A DNA stretch of 60,537 nt from the NCBI RefSeq assembly GCF_003334255.1, contig NZ_QOWU01000027.1, one strand, 5' to 3'. Positions 13,773-59,511 of the stretch are shown here, piece after piece. This DNA comes from Escherichia coli. Lineage in GTDB: Bacteria; Pseudomonadota; Gammaproteobacteria; Enterobacterales; Enterobacteriaceae. The notes beneath the pieces were generated by a model. That model saw nothing but the letters and a program-made list of their open reading frames with translations. It made no database searches and was not told where the DNA came from. The translations under genes and the position numbers were made by a program. The first letter of the stretch is position 1. Each line of letters opens with the position of its first letter.

Positions 13773-13800
13773 TCGGCGGCCATGTTTCGCATGGCCGCCA
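13773..13800. terminator. Bidirectional hairpin terminator between convergent yehR and yehS
   Basis: 10-bp perfect stem GGCGGCCATG / CATGGCCGCC with loop TTTCG. Confidence 0.7.
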
Positions 13801-13808
13801 TACCCGTC

Positions 13809-20646: not shown

Positions 20647-21564
20647 TTACTTCGTCCACCCTTTTTGTTTCAGGTAGTCGGCAGCCACTTTTTTGGCATC
20701 CAGTCCTTCCACAGCAATGCTGGCATTCAGTTGCTGCAATGTTTTTGCATCGAGGCTGGCGAAGACTGGCTGTAGCCACTGTGCCATTTGCGGATACTCC
20801 CTCAACACCGACTCACGCACCACTGGTGCAGGCGCGTAGATAGGTTGCACACCTTGCGGATCGCTTAAGGTTTGCAGCCCCAGCGCCGCTACCGGGCCGT
20901 CAGTGCCGTAAGCCATTGCAGCATTAACGCCAGAGGTTTGCTGGGCAGCGGCTTTGATCGTCACCGCCGTGTCGCCACCAGCCAGTGACAGCAACTGATC
21001 CTGACCGAGCTTAAAGCCATAGGCTTTTTCAAACGCGGGTAACGCATCGGCGCGTTCGATAAACTCTGCCGAGGCTGCCAGTTTGAAGGTGCCGCCCTCT
21101 TGCAGATAACGACCCAGGTCGGCAAGCGAAGTGAGTTTATTTTTCTCTGCCACATCCTGACGCACGGCGATAGTCCAGGTGTTATTTGCAGGCGCGGGCG
21201 TCAGCCAGATTAACTTGTTGTGCTCCGAATCGAGCTTTTTGACTTTCTCGTAACCTTGCTGCGCGTTTTTCCACGCTGCATCGTTTTCATCTTTAAAGAA
21301 GAAAGCGCCATTGCCGGTATATTCCGGATAGATATCCAGTTCACCGGAAGTAATCGCCCCGCGCACCACAGGAGTCGTTCCGAGTTGCACTTTATTCACC
21401 GTCGGTACGCCGTGGCTTTCCAGCACCTGCAAAATGATATTGCCGAGTAGCGCACCTTCGGTATCGATTTTTGAACCGACTTTAACGGGGGAAGCCGCCT
21501 GTAGCGGCAGGCTCACGGCTGCCAACATAACCAGTGAACCTGCCCAGAGCTTTAAGAGTGGCAT
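20647..21564 (-). CDS. osmF: OsmF (YehZ), periplasmic glycine betaine/osmoprotectant-binding protein (305 aa)
   Basis: ORF 20647..21564 (-); N-terminal signal peptide; first gene of the four-gene transporter operon. Confidence 0.92.
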   Translation of the reverse strand: MPLLKLWAGSLVMLAAVSLPLQAASPVKVGSKIDTEGALLGNIILQVLESHGVPTVNKVQLGTTPVVRGAITSGELDIYPEYTGNGAFFFKDENDAAWKNAQQGYEKVKKLDSEHNKLIWLTPAPANNTWTIAVRQDVAEKNKLTSLADLGRYLQEGGTFKLAASAEFIERADALPAFEKAYGFKLGQDQLLSLAGGDTAVTIKAAAQQTSGVNAAMAYGTDGPVAALGLQTLSDPQGVQPIYAPAPVVRESVLREYPQMAQWLQPVFASLDAKTLQQLNASIAVEGLDAKKVAADYLKQKGWTK

Positions 21565-28591: not shown

Positions 28592-29353
28592 CTATTCTGG
28601 GTTGAACTGTGGATTCGCCAACATAAAGCCGCCATCCACTATCAACGACTGCCCGGTGGTGTAATTTGCGCCCTCCGAACAAAGCCACACCACCAGGCTG
28701 GCAATCTCATGCGTTGCGCCAAAACGCCGCAAGGGAATCGAAGGCTCCGCGTCGGGCTTCACGTCGCTGTCATCCATGCCATTCATTGGCGTGGCGATCG
28801 CCCCAGGCGCGACTGCGTTCACCAAAATCTTATGCCTGACCAGCTCCAGCGCCATCGCTTTGGTTAACCCACCGAGCGCATGTTTAGCGGCTGTGTAGGC
28901 GCTGGCATCCGGCAGCGGCGTATGTTCATGTACCGACGTAATGTTGATGATGCGACCGCCCTGCCCTTGTTTCACCATCTGACGAGCCGCAATTTGCGAG
29001 CATAAGAATGCACCATCGACATCAACGGTAAAAATCTTGCGCCACTCATCAAAAGCCATATCAAGAAACGGCGCTTTGGTCATTGCACCCGCATTATTCA
29101 CCAGCACATCAATGCGCCCCAGCCGTTGAATGAGTTTCTCCAGCGCCAGTGCCCCTTCTGGTAGATTGCCGAGATCCAGCTGCACGATCTCCGCACGTAC
29201 GCCGTGGCTAACTACCTCACGCGCGGTATCTTTTGCCCCTTCTTCATCTGAGTGCCAGGTAATACCAATATCAAACCCCTGCTGCGCCAGTAATAACGCG
29301 CACTCTTTGCCGATCCCCGAATCGGAGGCGGTAATAATCGCAACCTGTGCCAT
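28592..29353 (-). CDS. yohF: YohF, short-chain dehydrogenase/reductase (253 aa)
   Basis: ORF track 28592..29365 (-); NAD(P)-binding TASDSGIG motif. Confidence 0.9.
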   Translation of the reverse strand: MAQVAIITASDSGIGKECALLLAQQGFDIGITWHSDEEGAKDTAREVVSHGVRAEIVQLDLGNLPEGALALEKLIQRLGRIDVLVNNAGAMTKAPFLDMAFDEWRKIFTVDVDGAFLCSQIAARQMVKQGQGGRIINITSVHEHTPLPDASAYTAAKHALGGLTKAMALELVRHKILVNAVAPGAIATPMNGMDDSDVKPDAEPSIPLRRFGATHEIASLVVWLCSEGANYTTGQSLIVDGGFMLANPQFNPE

Positions 29354-29405
29354 CGAGTTCTCCACTTAACGCTGAATAAACGTTAAGTATAGAAGGCGCA
29401 TATCA

Positions 29406-30842
29406 TCAGCGTTTGTAACCCCCGCCCAACGCACCAGTGAGTTGAATGGAGGCATCCAGCCACTGCCCTTGCAATAACAGGCCATTGGCCCGCTCACGCA
29501 GCGCGGGGATTCTGGCTTCGCTGACGCGGGAACCAGCAATGATGCCCGCGTTAAAGCGCGCCTGCGCAAGACCTACCACACGCAAGGCATCGCGCTCAAT
29601 TTGCGCCTGATGCTGGTTTTTCTCCGCCAGTGTCTGAACCTGACTGGCTGCCCGCGCCACGTCATTCACCGCTTCAACCACCGCTTTGTTGTAGCTGGCG
29701 ATAGACAAGTTGCTTTCGGCTTTTGCGATATCGAGATTGGCGTTAAGACGACCACTATCGAAAATGGGTAGCGTCAGGCCTGCCGTAACGCCCATTTGCT
29801 GCGCGGAATGACGGAACAGATCGCTTAAGTGCAACGCATCCTGTTGCAGGAAGGCCATCAGGTTGATGTCAGGATAAAATGCCGCTTTTGCCGCATCAAT
29901 GGTGCTTAGCGATGACTCAACGTACCAGTGCGCCGCCTGCAAATCTGCCCGCCGGGCCAGTAAGGAGTACCCCAGTTCATCAGGAAGCTGGCTTGCCACT
30001 TTCGGCAACGCGACCGGTTTAAGCTTCAATGACTTTGTCTGGTTATTTGTAAGTGCGCTTAACCGTGCCTCAATAATTTTCATTTTCCCCGCGACATCGT
30101 TGAGCTGCTGCCGGGTTTTGCTGGCATTAATATCGGTTTCCACACCTTCAACTGAAGAAGTAATCCCGTTCTGATATAGCTGGCGATCGGTCGCGATAAT
30201 GGTGTTCTGCTCTTTTTCTATTTGCTGCAAGACCGTGTTTAACGCCGCCTGGGTTTGCCACTCCCAGTACAGGCGGGCTACGCTGCCAGCCAGCAATTGG
30301 CGGGTTTGCTCGCGTTCCGCCGCCCGTGCTTTAACCGTACCCAGGCGGGCAGTAACCTCCGCCCGATTCTTTCCCCAGATATCGAGATGCCAGCCCGCCG
30401 TTAAGCCAAAAGTACCGTTGGTGTACCACGGGCCGGTCGTACCTGCGGCCGGATCGTTCAGAGCAAACGGCCCCATTAAGCCTTCTGCCGACATTTTTTG
30501 CCGCTCCATATCCGCCGAAAAGTCGATCTGCGGACCATCCTGAGTGGCAACTGCCTTCGCCTGGGCTTCAGCTAGCTGAATGCGCTGTTCAGCCACCTGC
30601 ATATCCGGTGCGTTCTGTAGTGCATTGTTAATTAAGGAAGTGAGTTGATTATCGTGATACTCCAGCCACCATTGGCTGTCTGGCCAACCATTTTTCAGCG
30701 CCGTGGGTAATGCGGTGTCAACTTGTGCAGCGGGCGTTTGCTGGCTTAACGCCTGGCGGGTTTCATGCATAGGCGCACACCCGGCCAGCATCAGTAACAG
30801 CGGAAAACAGGCGATGGCTGGATAAAAGGAATCACGATTCAT
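29406..30842 (-). CDS. mdtQ: MdtQ, OprM/TolC-type outer-membrane efflux lipoprotein; reads as an intact 478-aa frame here
   Basis: ORF track 29406..30932 (-) is one uninterrupted frame; start trimmed to ATG 30842 (MNRDSFYPAIACFPLLLMLAGC, lipobox). Confidence 0.85.
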   Translation of the reverse strand: MNRDSFYPAIACFPLLLMLAGCAPMHETRQALSQQTPAAQVDTALPTALKNGWPDSQWWLEYHDNQLTSLINNALQNAPDMQVAEQRIQLAEAQAKAVATQDGPQIDFSADMERQKMSAEGLMGPFALNDPAAGTTGPWYTNGTFGLTAGWHLDIWGKNRAEVTARLGTVKARAAEREQTRQLLAGSVARLYWEWQTQAALNTVLQQIEKEQNTIIATDRQLYQNGITSSVEGVETDINASKTRQQLNDVAGKMKIIEARLSALTNNQTKSLKLKPVALPKVASQLPDELGYSLLARRADLQAAHWYVESSLSTIDAAKAAFYPDINLMAFLQQDALHLSDLFRHSAQQMGVTAGLTLPIFDSGRLNANLDIAKAESNLSIASYNKAVVEAVNDVARAASQVQTLAEKNQHQAQIERDALRVVGLAQARFNAGIIAGSRVSEARIPALRERANGLLLQGQWLDASIQLTGALGGGYKR

Positions 30843-31065
30843 GGGGGAATAATCAGGTAAGAAAAGGTGCGCGGAGATTACCGTGTGTTGCGATATATTT
30901 TTTAGTTTCGCGTGGCAATACATCAGTGGCAATAAAACGACATATCCAGAAAAATATACACTAAGTGAATGATATCTTCCGATTTATCTTAATCGTTTAT
31001 GGATAACGGCAAAGGGCTTCGTTTTTTCCTATACTTATTCAGCACTCACAAATAAAGGAACGCCA

Positions 31066-31149
31066 ATGAAAATTATACTCTGGGCTGTATTGATTATTTT
31101 CCTGATTGGGCTACTGGTGGTGACTGGCGTATTTAAGATGATATTTTAA
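31066..31149 (+). CDS. yohP: YohP, small membrane protein (27 aa)
   Basis: Not in the ORF track. Manual translation gives MKIILWAVLIIFLIGLLVVTGVFKMIF, with AAGGAA SD upstream and TAA at 31147-31149. Confidence 0.8.
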   Translation: MKIILWAVLIIFLIGLLVVTGVFKMIF

Positions 31150-31249
31150 AATTAATTAATGTCATCAGGTCCGAAAATAACGAGAATATTTCAGTCTCTC
31201 ATCCTGTTGCGCTCCTGTCATGTGCATTGCTTCATATAATCACTGGCGC

Positions 31250-38591: not shown

Positions 38592-38775
38592 GACGCATCC
38601 GGCATTTGGTTCCTGTCGCCGGATGCGGCTTGAACGCCTTATCCGGCCTACAAAACCATACAAATCAGTATGTTGAGCTTATTGTAGGCCGGATAAAACG
38701 CGCCAGCGTTGCATCCGGCATTTGGCTCCTGTTGCCGGATGCGGCGTGAACGCCTTATCCGGCCTACAAAACCAC
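38592..38775. repeat. BIME cluster (several REP units in alternating orientation)
   Basis: Repeated GCCGGATGCGGC(T/G)TGAACGCCTTATCCGGCCTACAAAACC units and inverted copies between preA and mglC. Confidence 0.88.
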
Positions 38776-38826
38776 ACAGATCATGATGTTATGTGCGTTT
38801 ATGACCGAATGCGGACCACATTCACA

Positions 38827-46861: not shown

Positions 46862-48852
46862 TCAGAAGCGATAATCCACTGCCATAAAGTAACGACGTCC
46901 GTCTTCGTTATAGCTGTAGTCGTCACGACTGAGATCCTTGTCGCCAAGGTTCAGCACGCCTGCGCGCAGTTTGACGTCTTTAGTCACCTGCCAGGCCGCG
47001 CCGGTATTCCAGATGGTATAACCGCCCGGTGTTTTAGCCGTCGCGCTGTCGGCGCGTTTCTGCCCGGTATAGTGCCCAGAAACATAGAATGACCAGTCTT
47101 CCAGCGCCAGCGGTTTCCAGTCCAGCGTACCGTTAGCAGTATGGAACGGCAGATCGGATAGCGGTTTGTTTTCGCCGTTGCTGACATCACGACCATCGTT
47201 GTAGGTGTAGTTGATCGACAGTTTCCATTCATCGTTGAACGGAATTTTCAGTTCGGTTTCCACGCCCTGAATACGAGCTTTGTTAACGTTGTAGTAGCTA
47301 AATACCGGTATGCGCCGTCCGTTAGCGCCCGTCTCAAAACCAACAAAGTTTTGGTAGCCCGGTGCAGCGTTGACGTCAGACGTACGGCTGATGCTGATAC
47401 GATCTTTCACATCGTTACGGAAAACGGTAACGCTGGATTCAACCCCTTCCAGCCAGCCTTCTTCACCCATGTAGTAAAGCCCCAGCTCCCAACTTTCGCT
47501 GGTTTCTGGTTTCAGATCCGGGCTACCCACAATCTTACATGCGCCACGGCAGGAATTGCTCGTCCAGTCAGGGCTAAGTTGCAACAGAGAAGGTGCTTTA
47601 AATGCCGTCGCCCAGCCCCCTTTCACCGTTACGGTGTCGGTGGCGTTATAAACCAGGTAGGCACGCGGACTCCAGTGTTCACCGTAGGTTTCGTGATCGT
47701 CCATACGCACGCCGGTCGTCAGCGCCAGCGGCTCGAAGATCCGCCATTCATCTTCCACAAACAGCGCGTACTGGCTGGCAGACGTTTTGGAGCTGGTTCC
47801 CCCGGTCAGGTTCACCGCATCGCTAAGTTTGTCGTGACGCCATTCACCGCCAACCGTGAGAAACTGATTAATCGCCGTCAGCGGCAACGTGTATTTGCCG
47901 TCGACCGTATTGCTTTCGGAAGTTATCGGGCTGCTGTTGCCAGGGTTTTTGTTCTCGACTTTCTCACCGTAGTATTTCAGTTCGCTGGTGCCGTAATCCC
48001 AACGCCCATTATGGCTGACGGAGTAGTTCTGGCGTTCCAGGCGGTTTTTGTCCAGCGAGTCGGAATCACGATCCTGACGGTCGAAACCGTATCCGGCAGT
48101 AAAATCGTGATTTTGATTCGGTGTCCAGGCAAATTCGACATTGCCGTGCGGCTGGAGAATCCTTCAATACGCGGCGTTTCTCCGGTATCGGTGGTCGTTG
48201 AGTTTTGCGGGTCATCCTTTTCACGTTTTGCCAGGCTGCCGTAAGCTTTCATTCCCAGCACACCATCAATTAATGGTCCACTGGTAAAGAACTGACCGTT
48301 ATAGGTGTCACCGCGATCGCGATGTTCCTGAATGGTGGTATCGACGGTAACGGTACCCGACCATTTCTGACCGATTTTTTTGGTGATGATATTCACTACA
48401 CCGCCGAGCGCATCGGAACCGTACAGCGACGACATCGGGCCACGGACCACTTCAATACGTTCGATGGAATCGACCGGGATCCAGTTCAGATCGAAATCAT
48501 TGTGGCGGAAGACGGCATTGCGGGAGTTCACGCGTTTACCGTCGACGAGAATCAGGGTATAGCTGCTGTCCAGACCACGAATACTAACGCCCTTACGGTT
48601 ATCCCCTTCGTTCGTCAGTTGTACGCCAGGCACTTCTTTGAGGACATCCTTCAGATTCTGTACCGGTTTTCGCTGCAGGTCTTCCTGGGTAATGACGCTG
48701 ATACTGGCAGGTGCATCTTTAAGATTTTGTTCCACGGAAGATGCAGTGACAACCATCGTTTCGCCATCATCATCGACCGCTAACACAGGCCATGCACAAG
48801 AAATAGCGGACAAACACAGCCCGACCCGTACGAAAGGGTTCAACCTAAACAT
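46862..48852 (-). pseudogene. cirA: cirA (TonB-dependent catecholate siderophore / colicin I receptor) disrupted by a single-base frameshift
   Basis: Two minus-strand ORFs (47977..48852, N-terminal; 46862..47887, C-terminal ending ...AVDYRF) in different frames. Total span is 1991 nt, one short of the 1992 nt needed for a 663-aa protein plus stop. Both frames are open across ~48130-48150; a missing base near 48137/48138 restores [15 protein letters not shown]... Confidence 0.85.
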
Positions 48853-54977: not shown

Positions 54978-56228
54978 TCAAGCTAAACCAATAAAGAACC
55001 CGGCAATGGTCGCACTCATCAAGTTGGAAAGCGTCGCCGCCGCCAGCGCCCGTAAACCAAGCTGGGCGATTTCCGGCGCACGGTGTGGCGCAACCGCAGA
55101 AAACGCCCCCACCACCACCCCGATAGAACCAAAGTTAGCGAAACCGCACAACGCGAAGGAAATAATCGCCACAGTTTTAGCATCGAGAGTGCCAGCCGTT
55201 TGCAGATAGGGTGAGAAATTGAGATAAGCGACAAATTCATTTATTGCCAGTTTCTGTCCAATCAAACTCCCGGCAAGATTCGCATCACTCCAGTCCACAC
55301 CCATCACCCACGCCAGTGGAGCCAGCAGGTAACCTAAAATGGACTCCAGCGAGGCATGTTCAAAACCAAACCAGCCACCAACGCCGCCGATAATACCGTT
55401 AATCAACGCAATTATTGCAACAAATGCCATCACCACTGTTGCCACACCTGCGGCGATTTTCAGCCCGGTCATTGCCCCTGTCGCAGCGGCTTCAATAATG
55501 CTTTTTGGCGGTGTTTCGGTGAAAGAGAGGTTATTAAAGGAAACCTGCGAAGATTCCGTTGCCGGGCTTAACAGGCGGGCAAACAAGATCCCGCCAGGGA
55601 TCGCCATTAATGATGCCGCCAGCAGATATTCCACAGGCACGCCCAGTGCGGCGTAACCAATCATTGTCGAACCAGCAATCGAGGCCATGCCACTACAAAT
55701 CGCTGTAAATAATTCATTGCGATTCAGACGATCGATAAAGGGTTTGACGATTGCCGGAATTTCGTTTTGCCCGAGGAAAATGGTGGTGACCGCGACGAAT
55801 GACTCGATCTTGCTGATATTTAATGCTTTCTGGAAGATACCGCCGAGAATTCGAATTAAAATCCCCATCACACCGATGTAGTAGAGAATACTCACCAGCG
55901 CGGTGACGAAGATAATTGCCGGTAACACCCTGAAACCAAAGATAAATCCTGCACCATCAAATAAGGTATCCATTTTCGGTCCGACCAGAGAACCGAAGAT
56001 AAATGCGCTACCCGCGTCGCTGTACGCCATCACTTTATGCACGCCAAAAGCGACTTTTTCAGCGACCCAACGCCCTGGCGGTAACCAAAGCATAATGCCG
56101 CCAATCACGACCTGTAACACTAACGCCGCGCCAACGGTACGCAGGCTGATCTTCTTCTTGTTTACTGACAGTAAAAACGCAATCGTCAGCAATACCACCA
56201 TTCCCAGAACACTTCTCATGACATCCAT
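54978..56228 (-). CDS. nupX: NupX, NupC-family (CNT) nucleoside transporter (416 aa)
   Basis: ORF 54978..56228 (-); near-identical paralog of psuT in this window. Confidence 0.92.
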   Translation of the reverse strand: MDVMRSVLGMVVLLTIAFLLSVNKKKISLRTVGAALVLQVVIGGIMLWLPPGRWVAEKVAFGVHKVMAYSDAGSAFIFGSLVGPKMDTLFDGAGFIFGFRVLPAIIFVTALVSILYYIGVMGILIRILGGIFQKALNISKIESFVAVTTIFLGQNEIPAIVKPFIDRLNRNELFTAICSGMASIAGSTMIGYAALGVPVEYLLAASLMAIPGGILFARLLSPATESSQVSFNNLSFTETPPKSIIEAAATGAMTGLKIAAGVATVVMAFVAIIALINGIIGGVGGWFGFEHASLESILGYLLAPLAWVMGVDWSDANLAGSLIGQKLAINEFVAYLNFSPYLQTAGTLDAKTVAIISFALCGFANFGSIGVVVGAFSAVAPHRAPEIAQLGLRALAAATLSNLMSATIAGFFIGLA

Positions 56229-56327
56229 AGTGATTATCTCTTCATGTCATATTGGGCGACGGCTTTCTGCCCATCAGAAATAGCCAGGCCTGCATCTTGC
56301 GATACCGGCCCGGCTTGTTATCAACAC

Positions 56328-58167: not shown

Positions 58168-59418
58168 TTACGCCAGACCAATAAAGAACCCGGCAATAGT
58201 CGCACTCATCAGGTTGGAAAGCGTTGCTGCTGCCAGCGCCCGTAAACCAAGCTGGGCGATTTCCGGCGCGCGTTTTGGCGAAATAGCCGAAAATGCGCCA
58301 ACGACAACACCGATAGAACCAAAGTTAGCAAAACCACAAAGCGCAAAGGAGATAATCGCAATGGTTTTCACTTCCAGCGTGCCGCCCGTTTGCAGGTATG
58401 GGGAGAAACTCAGGTAAGCGACGAATTCGTTAATCGCCAGTTTCTGCCCAATCAGGCTACCCGCAAGATTGGCATCACTCCAGTCCACACCCATGATCCA
58501 CGCCAGCGGTGCCAGCACATAGCCAAAAATACTTTCCAGAGAGGCATTGGCGAAACCAAACCAGCCGCCAATTCCGCCGATAATGCCGTTGATCAGCGCA
58601 ATAATTGCGACAAACGCCATTACCACCGTCGCCACACCAGCGGCGATTTTTAGCCCGGTCATCGCACCGCTCGCCGCCGCTTCGATAAAGCTTTTTGGCG
58701 GCGTTTCGCTGAACGACAGATTTTCAAATGTGACCTGCGAAGGCTCGGTTGCCGGGCTAAGAATACGTGCAAACAAAATCCCGCCAGGGATCGCCATCAG
58801 CGATGCCGCTAACAGGTAGTCAATTGGTACGCCCATTCCGGCATAACCAATCATCATCGAACCAGCAATGGACGCCATCCCGCTACAAATTGCGGTAAAC
58901 AACTCGTTGCGATTCATGCGATCGATAAACGGTTTAACGATCGCCGGGATCTCATTTTGCCCGAGGAAAATAGTAGTAACCGCAACAAAAGATTCGATTT
59001 TGCTGATGTTGAGGGCTTTCTGGAAAATGCTGCCAAGGATGCGAATCAGCAGCCCCATCACGCCAATGTAGTACAGCAGACTGATGAGCGCAGTAACGAA
59101 AATAATCGCCGGAAGTACGCGAAAGGCGAAGATAAAACCCGCACCGTCAAACAGGACATCCATTTTCGGCCCAACCAGCGAACCAAAAATGAAGGCGCTA
59201 CCGGCATCACTGTAAGACATCACTTTATGAACGCCTAATGCCGCCTGTTCTACTGCCCATTTTCCCGGTGGGAAGTAGAGCATGATGCCACCAATAGCGA
59301 TTTGCAGCAGCAGTGCGGCTCCAACCGTGCGCAAACTGATGCTCTTTTTATTCACTGACAACAGAAATGCTATTGCCAGTAACACCACCATCCCCACAAC
59401 ACTTCTCATTATATCCAT
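58168..59418 (-). CDS. psuT: PsuT (YeiM), NupC-family putative pseudouridine transporter (416 aa)
   Basis: ORF 58168..59418 (-). Confidence 0.92.
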   Translation of the reverse strand: MDIMRSVVGMVVLLAIAFLLSVNKKSISLRTVGAALLLQIAIGGIMLYFPPGKWAVEQAALGVHKVMSYSDAGSAFIFGSLVGPKMDVLFDGAGFIFAFRVLPAIIFVTALISLLYYIGVMGLLIRILGSIFQKALNISKIESFVAVTTIFLGQNEIPAIVKPFIDRMNRNELFTAICSGMASIAGSMMIGYAGMGVPIDYLLAASLMAIPGGILFARILSPATEPSQVTFENLSFSETPPKSFIEAAASGAMTGLKIAAGVATVVMAFVAIIALINGIIGGIGGWFGFANASLESIFGYVLAPLAWIMGVDWSDANLAGSLIGQKLAINEFVAYLSFSPYLQTGGTLEVKTIAIISFALCGFANFGSIGVVVGAFSAISPKRAPEIAQLGLRALAAATLSNLMSATIAGFFIGLA

Positions 59419-59511
59419 AATGATTTTCCCTTCATGCCGGTAAACCCGGCGTCAGCGCCAGGTTTTGGTATGCTTGATGAGTACGGGCGACGGCTTTCTG
59501 CCCGTCAGAAA

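Follow-up and report, generated by a model that had tools for sequence, protein, structure and literature searches.

The 60,537-nucleotide stretch of Escherichia coli DNA analyzed here (the window) carries an intact mdtQ gene (formerly yohG), of 478 codons and a stop, on its minus strand at 29406-30842. Its identity as an ordinary intact mdtQ was confirmed; the one-base deletion that breaks the gene in K-12 is confined to that laboratory lineage. The feature is very probably the ancestral allele of a core chromosomal gene that lies outside any pump operon, and its product would serve as the exit duct of an outer membrane factor (OMF) type whose partners are encoded elsewhere.

The frame begins with an ATG at 30842-30840 and closes with a TGA stop ending at 29406 (1437 nt, minus strand), with no internal stop codon. 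The open reading frame and the sequence agreed on this single uninterrupted frame, and the coordinates, the length, and the N-terminal motif of mdtQ in the original prediction were all right. The protein scored 1024.4 bits against NF008524, the NCBIfam equivalog model for MdtQ (cut-off 650), and its residues 1-478 aligned to profile positions 1-478 of 478, indicating that mdtQ is a conserved gene and not a chance ORF. The same end-to-end alignment supports the ATG start. A longer mechanical ORF from TTG 30932 (508 aa) was rejected as the start of mdtQ, being contradicted by the MdtQ model and by all annotated orthologues, which begin at ATG 30842 just before the signal peptide. At the DNA level the window gene was 100% identical to genes annotated as mdtQ, for example, that encoding WP_001078139.1. 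Together with the full-length profile match and the shared dusC-yohP-mdtQ-yohF-yohD synteny, this makes it the same gene as MdtQ/YohG of E. coli. The synteny is marked by yohP, a divergent small membrane protein gene (31067-31150, plus strand) recognized from its sequence, its annotation, the Salmonella locus, and PMC12719787. The longer order dusC-yohP-mdtQ-yohF-yohD-yohC-pbpG was shared by the window, other E. coli strains, and Salmonella.

The window was collinear with positions 2197994-2258377 of MG1655, with 99.43% identity, 336 mismatches, and 9 gap positions. This divergence was very uneven, with about 330 mismatches in the first 20 kb; the part of the window from position 21,115 onward held just five differences, and mdtQ accounted for two of these. 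Given this identity and number of mismatches over 60 kb, the window is not MG1655, in agreement with what had been proposed. The central 25 kb was 100% identical to strains G1/2, G6/7, and G8. As a separate observation, cirA in the window was split by a non-homopolymer 1 bp deletion that causes a frameshift; this deletion occurred in 0 of the 5,396 complete genomes carrying the region.

In MG1655 (NC_000913.3), mdtQ (b2139) is annotated as a "pseudogene" of 1436 bp at 2227323-2228758. Pairwise alignment with the window gene revealed exactly two differences. The first was a 1 bp deletion in a run of five adenines at codons 49-50 (A5; T5 on the plus strand; 30691-30695, gene on the minus strand), which is reduced to A4 in the K-12 lineage and turns the gene into a pseudogene. 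The second was a synonymous SNP at 29418 (minus-strand gene), where Gly475 is encoded by GGT in the window and by GGG in K-12. The K-12 frame ends about 20 codons past the deletion, and what follows is open only in a different frame that lacks the signal peptide. The window, with A5 at 30691-30695 and an open frame, does not carry the b2139 pseudogene allele. Both the annotation and the A4 in the alignment bear out the statement, in the original prediction, that the MG1655 gene is a frameshifted pseudogene; K-12 does not share the uninterrupted frame.

A 50-mer containing A4 was matched exactly in 355 of 5,426 complete E. coli genomes, and among the matches listed all 60 carriers were K-12 laboratory derivatives (MG1655, C600, DH5alpha, DH1, J53, RR1, NCM3722, etc.). 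In contrast, the 51-mer containing A5 was matched exactly in 4,625 of the 5,426 genomes. The frameshift is therefore a real marker of the K-12 lineage, and the window allele is the common form, typical of the species. A length change of one base in a homopolymer is a typical error site, and the A5/A4 difference could in principle stem from a sequencing or assembly error in the window or in the reference. We regard this as practically ruled out: the genomes with an exact A5 are independent of each other, the exact A4 matches include, among those listed, 60 separately sequenced K-12 derivatives, and a five-base run is short for homopolymer errors. A sequencing artefact was accordingly rejected as the cause on the allele counts.

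The N-terminus of MdtQ, MNRDSFYPAIACFPLLLMLAGC, has the features of a lipoprotein signal peptide (residues 1-22; 30777-30842, minus strand), as judged from the translation and from 70 relatives. The lipobox is L19-A20-G21-C22, followed by Ala at position +2. Across the 70 relatives, which reach down to 26% identity, the C22 column was invariant, and the three positions before it were occupied by L, by A, S, T, or G, and by G, A, or S, respectively. The lipoprotein signal originally read from the LAGC motif is thus well founded, and by its lipobox MdtQ belongs with the NodT-family lipoproteins and is predicted to be lipidated. A residue other than Asp at position +2 directs a lipoprotein to the outer membrane via the Lol pathway.

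Two OEP repeats (Pfam PF02321) were identified, repeat 1 at residues 69-266 (30045-30638, minus strand; i-E 2.2e-17) and repeat 2 at residues 293-473 (29424-29966, minus strand; i-E 9.8e-13). An AlphaFold2 model built on the alignment of the 70 relatives (pLDDT 85.9, pTM 0.80) likewise had two repeats, in each of which a pair of beta-strands precedes very long helices. These were strands 105-116 and 139-153 and helices 158-224 and 230-265 in repeat 1, and strands 325-336 and 348-357 and helices 363-431 and 437-472 in repeat 2. G226, at the hairpin tip of repeat 1, and G433, within the RFNAGI sequence of repeat 2, occupy equivalent positions and were nearly invariant in the same alignment. The sole BLASTP match to TolC aligned RFNAGI with RFNVGL of TolC, which we take to be the motif at the aperture tip, where the adaptor hairpin makes contact. 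A Foldseek search with the model retrieved VceC, OprN, CmeC, CusC, and OprM at TM 0.74-0.89 (E about 1e-22), and TolC was more distant (E about 1e-14, TM 0.65-0.78). MdtQ is therefore predicted, with good confidence in the model, to adopt the OMF protomer fold.

Family profiles placed the protein more precisely. MdtQ scored 274 bits on TIGR01845 (NodT OMF lipoproteins; cut-off 210.05), with its two OEP repeats in tandem. On TIGR01844 (TolC-type type I secretion) it reached 54.2 bits, below the cut-off of 225.15. Its score on the MdtP family model NF007390 was 356.2 bits against a cut-off of 597, indicating that MdtQ is not an MdtP. By profile, Pfam, model, and Foldseek, the protein originally assigned to the OprM/TolC family is an OprM/VceC-like outer-membrane lipoprotein.

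Three known proteins are instructive for comparison. MdtP (YjcP, the OMF of ytcA-mdtNOP) is, like MdtQ, a NodT-type lipoprotein with two OEP repeats, but it is encoded in a pump operon, whereas no gene for an adaptor or a transporter adjoins mdtQ. Among proteins of solved structure, VceC of Vibrio cholerae (PDB 1YC9) is the closest relative, in sequence as well as in fold (TMt 0.87, rmsd 3.7 A), and about one third of its aligned residues are identical to those of MdtQ. VceC is encoded together with its pump (VceCAB; VceAB belongs to the EmrAB-like MFS pumps); MdtQ, in contrast, is an orphan. The general architecture of the protomer is common to TolC and MdtQ; TolC is likewise an orphan duct encoded apart from its pumps, and it shares the hairpin-tip Gly motif. 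However, TolC is not a lipoprotein and shows no significant BLASTP similarity to MdtQ, which has a lipobox Cys.

The assembly of a trimeric OMF with an adaptor and a transporter is established knowledge for this family. In the proposed mechanism, the Cys22 lipoprotein would be processed by Lgt, LspA, and Lnt and then sorted to the outer membrane by the Lol system. As a trimer, MdtQ would form a beta-barrel in the outer membrane and an alpha-helical tunnel in the periplasm, and it would dock to a periplasmic adaptor that leads to an inner-membrane transporter, both encoded elsewhere, with MdtQ as the exit duct. The genes beside mdtQ, both in the window and at the Salmonella and Citrobacter loci, included no adaptor or transporter gene, and no RND or MFP gene was present in the 60 kb window as judged by its collinearity with MG1655. 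The lack of an adjoining pump gene indicates that MdtQ is an orphan duct, as TolC is.

The nearest cluster representatives, at 37-42% identity, provided five informative neighbourhoods for partner inference; three metagenomic contigs with close relatives (P0121, P0126, and P0132) ended before any pump neighbours could be seen. Two of these relatives were encoded in YtcA-adaptor-FUSC-OMF operons of the mdtNOP type, and one lay directly downstream of an MdtO-like FUSC gene, such that a FUSC/MdtO-type gene stood directly upstream in three of the five neighbourhoods. Another relative was flanked by genes for an EmrB-like MFS transporter and an EmrA-like adaptor (EmrB-OMF-EmrA), and the last had only a TetR-family regulator in its neighbourhood. 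An RND gene was found beside the relatives in none of the five. A check for RND/MFP partner genes had been suggested, but the neighbours of the closest relatives were FUSC- and MFS-type pumps and not members of the RND class. By BLASTP, the closest E. coli paralogue of MdtQ was MdtP (35% over 466 residues, E 4e-88), followed by CusC (27%, E 2e-25). Among solved relatives, VceC was the best sequence match (E 1.1e-39, residues 51-477), compared with about 1e-23 for OprM.

Because MdtP is the closest paralogue, VceC is the closest solved relative, and the nearest relatives lie in FUSC- and EmrAB-type operons, a pump of the FUSC/AaeAB/MdtNO type or the EmrAB (MFS) type is the more likely partner of MdtQ, to the extent that five neighbourhoods and sequence similarity can indicate. 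MdtQ could alternatively be the outer-membrane partner of an RND pump, as OprM and CusC are; the NodT subfamily includes the RND partners OprM, CusC, and AdeK, and the predicted fold fits OprM, OprN, and CmeC as well as VceC. We consider this distinctly unlikely, given that the similarity to MdtP and VceC is far stronger than that to CusC and OprM, that the informative neighbourhoods held FUSC/MdtO-type genes, an EmrB/EmrA-type pair, or the TetR regulator and never an RND gene, and that the window itself has no RND/MFP gene.

Of the 5,426 complete E. coli genomes, 5,421 contained mdtQ; its location was chromosomal throughout, usually as a single copy. The gene had its full length of 1437 bp in 36 of 40 genomes sampled across the set. 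Six alleles with 97.4-99.4% nucleotide identity all retained 478 codons and were all annotated as proteins. Pairwise Nei-Gojobori dN/dS values among six to seven divergent E. coli alleles ranged from 0.04 to 0.19, and full-length orthologues were present in E. albertii (94% identity), Salmonella (82%), and Citrobacter (81%). From these sequence comparisons, mdtQ is evolving under purifying selection, and this selection, together with the conservation of the gene, suggests that the window allele is functional, as the original prediction had supposed. Losses were nevertheless seen: the gene of PSS-11 has a separate 1 bp deletion at codon 192, that of STEC379 has an IS1-associated 5' truncation, and some isolates of Salmonella Typhi and Paratyphi A are reported to carry premature stops in mdtQ (PMC9241588). 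Since K-12 lives without mdtQ and the gene has been disrupted independently in these strains, mdtQ is dispensable.

The signals for mdtQ expression were less clear. No recognizable Shine-Dalgarno sequence precedes the ATG (TTATTCCCCC-ATG), and a sigma-70 scan upstream of mdtQ gave no promoter-like match within about 290 nt. A single minus-strand match was obtained, at 31165-31138 within yohP and some 290 nt upstream; it was rejected, as the sites found by the scan were not above those in shuffled sequence. Without a Shine-Dalgarno sequence or a nearby sigma-70 match, expression of mdtQ may be low or conditional. A 36-nt block located 48-83 nt upstream of the ATG, TGATGTATTGCCACGCGAAACTAAAAAATATATCGC (30890-30925, minus strand), was nearly identical in E. 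coli and Salmonella in the alignment of the two loci, and the remaining intergenic region had diverged with indels. This block is a candidate promoter or regulatory site; a by-eye comparison with the marbox consensus gave no convincing match.

The weak translation start and the lack of a clear promoter would also fit a gene that is intact yet silent or redundant, that is, a cryptic TolC paralogue without measurable effect, whose loss in K-12 was neutral decay. The viability of the K-12 lineage without the gene, the independent inactivations in PSS-11 and STEC379 and those reported in Salmonella Typhi and Paratyphi A, and a review that calls the function of MdtQ not elucidated point the same way. 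However, the low dN/dS across E. coli phylogroups speaks against neutral drift, as do the full-length orthologues of E. albertii, Salmonella, and Citrobacter, which are 81-94% identical, and the upstream block common to E. coli and Salmonella. In addition, MdtQ is among the proteins, MarA and MarR included, that according to a proteomic table rose in a porcine isolate treated with paeonol (PMC12584432), which documents the protein in a natural isolate. We therefore regard a silent mdtQ as unlikely, although by no means far-fetched, and favor a conserved, functional gene.

Directly downstream of mdtQ lies yohF (28592-29353, minus strand), which encodes an SDR-family oxidoreductase of 253 aa and was identified from its ORF, from its match to NF009384 (484.8 bits; cut-off 264), and from the annotation of identical loci. 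The gap between the two genes, originally given as 53 bp, is in fact 52 nt (29354-29405, minus strand). Folding, a terminator scan, and the Salmonella alignment showed that this spacer contains a hairpin, a TATACT sequence, and the yohF Shine-Dalgarno sequence GGAG. The hairpin (CTTAACG...CGTTAAG; -21.8 kcal/mol, z = -1.78) has no U-tract and lacks a conserved counterpart in Salmonella; a search of 29354-29405 for an intrinsic terminator detected nothing terminator-like. TATACT, common to E. coli and Salmonella and located 26 nt before the yohF ATG, could be the -10 element of yohF's own promoter. As no terminator was found in the spacer, read-through from mdtQ into yohF is possible; mdtQ and yohF may be co-transcribed, with yohF read from the mdtQ promoter and probably also from a promoter of its own. 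A yohG-null phenotype reportedly goes back to Sulavik et al. 2001, in what is said to have been a K-12 strain. If that work was done in K-12, the phenotype of a gene that was already frameshifted needs another explanation, such as polarity on yohF.

The adjacency of mdtQ and yohF was also present in Salmonella and at a metagenomic orthologue of 60% identity. Together with the FUSC and MFS pumps served by the nearest relatives, it could be taken to mean that the two genes form a conserved module of duct and short-chain dehydrogenase in wild enterobacteria, in which MdtQ would be a TolC-independent duct for AaeAB/EmrAB-type pairs that lack an OMF of their own. Its role would then have stayed hidden because nearly all E. 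coli genetics used K-12, in which mdtQ is frameshifted. We consider such a module very unlikely. In Citrobacter, mdtQ is followed directly by the convergent yohD, with no yohF at the site, and in Nissle 1917 an intact mdtQ adjoins a yohF that is interrupted by a stop codon. Coupling of mdtQ and yohF is not obligatory.

That mdtQ is intact outside K-12 is correct but already known. PMC12719787 mentions "the mdtQ pseudogene" of K-12 adjoining yohP, and PMC11762307 cites UniProt Q8X659, the MdtQ of O157:H7, which is intact in this non-K-12 strain. A 2025 review of TolC lists MdtQ (formerly YohG) with cusC and mdtP as one of three E. coli TolC homologues, describes mdtQ as "encoded independently" with a function that has "not been elucidated", and places the gene in the conserved core genome of E. 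coli even though it is annotated as a pseudogene. As the intact state is the norm of the species and has been published, the observation itself is unremarkable. The present analysis adds the exact lesion, its restriction to K-12 among complete genomes, the purifying selection, and a hint that the partner is a non-RND pump.

The A5/A4 state at 30691-30695 cleanly splits the K-12 laboratory lineage from other E. coli and can be used for strain typing, beyond which the finding carries little weight. The "pseudogene" label of mdtQ in K-12 should not pass to other strains. For MdtQ itself, the hint about its partner narrows the candidates, since its relatives partner FUSC/MdtNO-type and EmrAB-type pumps rather than RND pumps.

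Divergence of the window from MG1655 was strongly mosaic, with different patterns in positions 1-21114 and 21115-60537. About 330 mismatches were found within the first 20 kb (yehH to yehY), whereas the remaining 39 kb (21115-60537) contained only five differences, located at 29418, 30691, 46098, 48147, and 59792. This distribution suggests a recombination boundary near yehX/yehY/osmF, with a K-12-like haplotype extending rightward. The window also differed from MG1655 by five single-base indels clustered at 13784-13804, where a short spacer separates yehR from yehS.

The window begins within yehH, which is a pseudogene in MG1655; the main BLAST segment against MG1655 did not include bases 1-77. 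Compared with K-12, the yehH region (1-2351) carried many SNPs as well as two deletions of a single base each, one near 1402 and the other near 1921. yehH looks disrupted in the window as well, because the ORFs at 127-1983 and 2010-2351 remain out of frame with each other. Internal repeats were also detected. A pair of approximately 1.26 kb copies with 79% identity (54987-56246 and 58177-59436) matched, by position, nupX and psuT, which are paralogous transporter genes. Two 80 bp copies with about 91% identity (38595-38674 and 38711-38790) were located in the spacer between preA and mglC and are probably REP-type elements.

The sequences flanking mdtQ were compared with those of Salmonella. 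Upstream of the gene, a 36 nt block on the minus strand (30890-30925; TGATGTATTGCCACGCGAAACTAAAAAATATATCGC) was near-invariant between E. coli and Salmonella, with large indels elsewhere in the yohP-mdtQ spacer; this block may be a promoter or a site for a regulator. The spacer between mdtQ and yohF (29354-29405, minus strand) contained a hairpin and a CTATACTTA motif. The hairpin, which has an 11 bp stem and lacks a U-tract, was specific to E. coli, and the motif was conserved with Salmonella and could be a -10 element of yohF. Independent events were found to have hit the mdtQ locus in other strains. In strain 720632 (locus L002, 2248-2945), mdtQ was otherwise identical but had IS1A 55 bp upstream, and in strain STEC379 (L013, 2248-3573) a 5'-truncated mdtQ was adjoined by IS1A. 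Strain PSS-11 carried a separate 1 bp deletion in mdtQ codon 192 (gene position 575 in L006), and Nissle 1917 (L008, 1790-2037) carried an internal stop in yohF next to an intact mdtQ.

cirA (46862-48852, minus strand), which encodes the receptor for catecholate siderophores and colicins Ia/Ib, was frameshifted by a deletion at about 48147. Sequence comparison with MG1655 revealed the loss of one C (GCCGTCGCGG to GCCGTGCGG) at a site that is not a homopolymer, and the reading frame was broken into ORFs of 291 and 341 aa instead of encoding a single 663 aa protein. A 56-mer spanning the deletion had no exact match in any of the 5,396 complete E. coli genomes carrying the region. The frameshift could be a genuine loss-of-function mutation, or else an error in the source sequence. 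Loss of cirA function is associated with resistance to colicin and catechol-cephalosporin.
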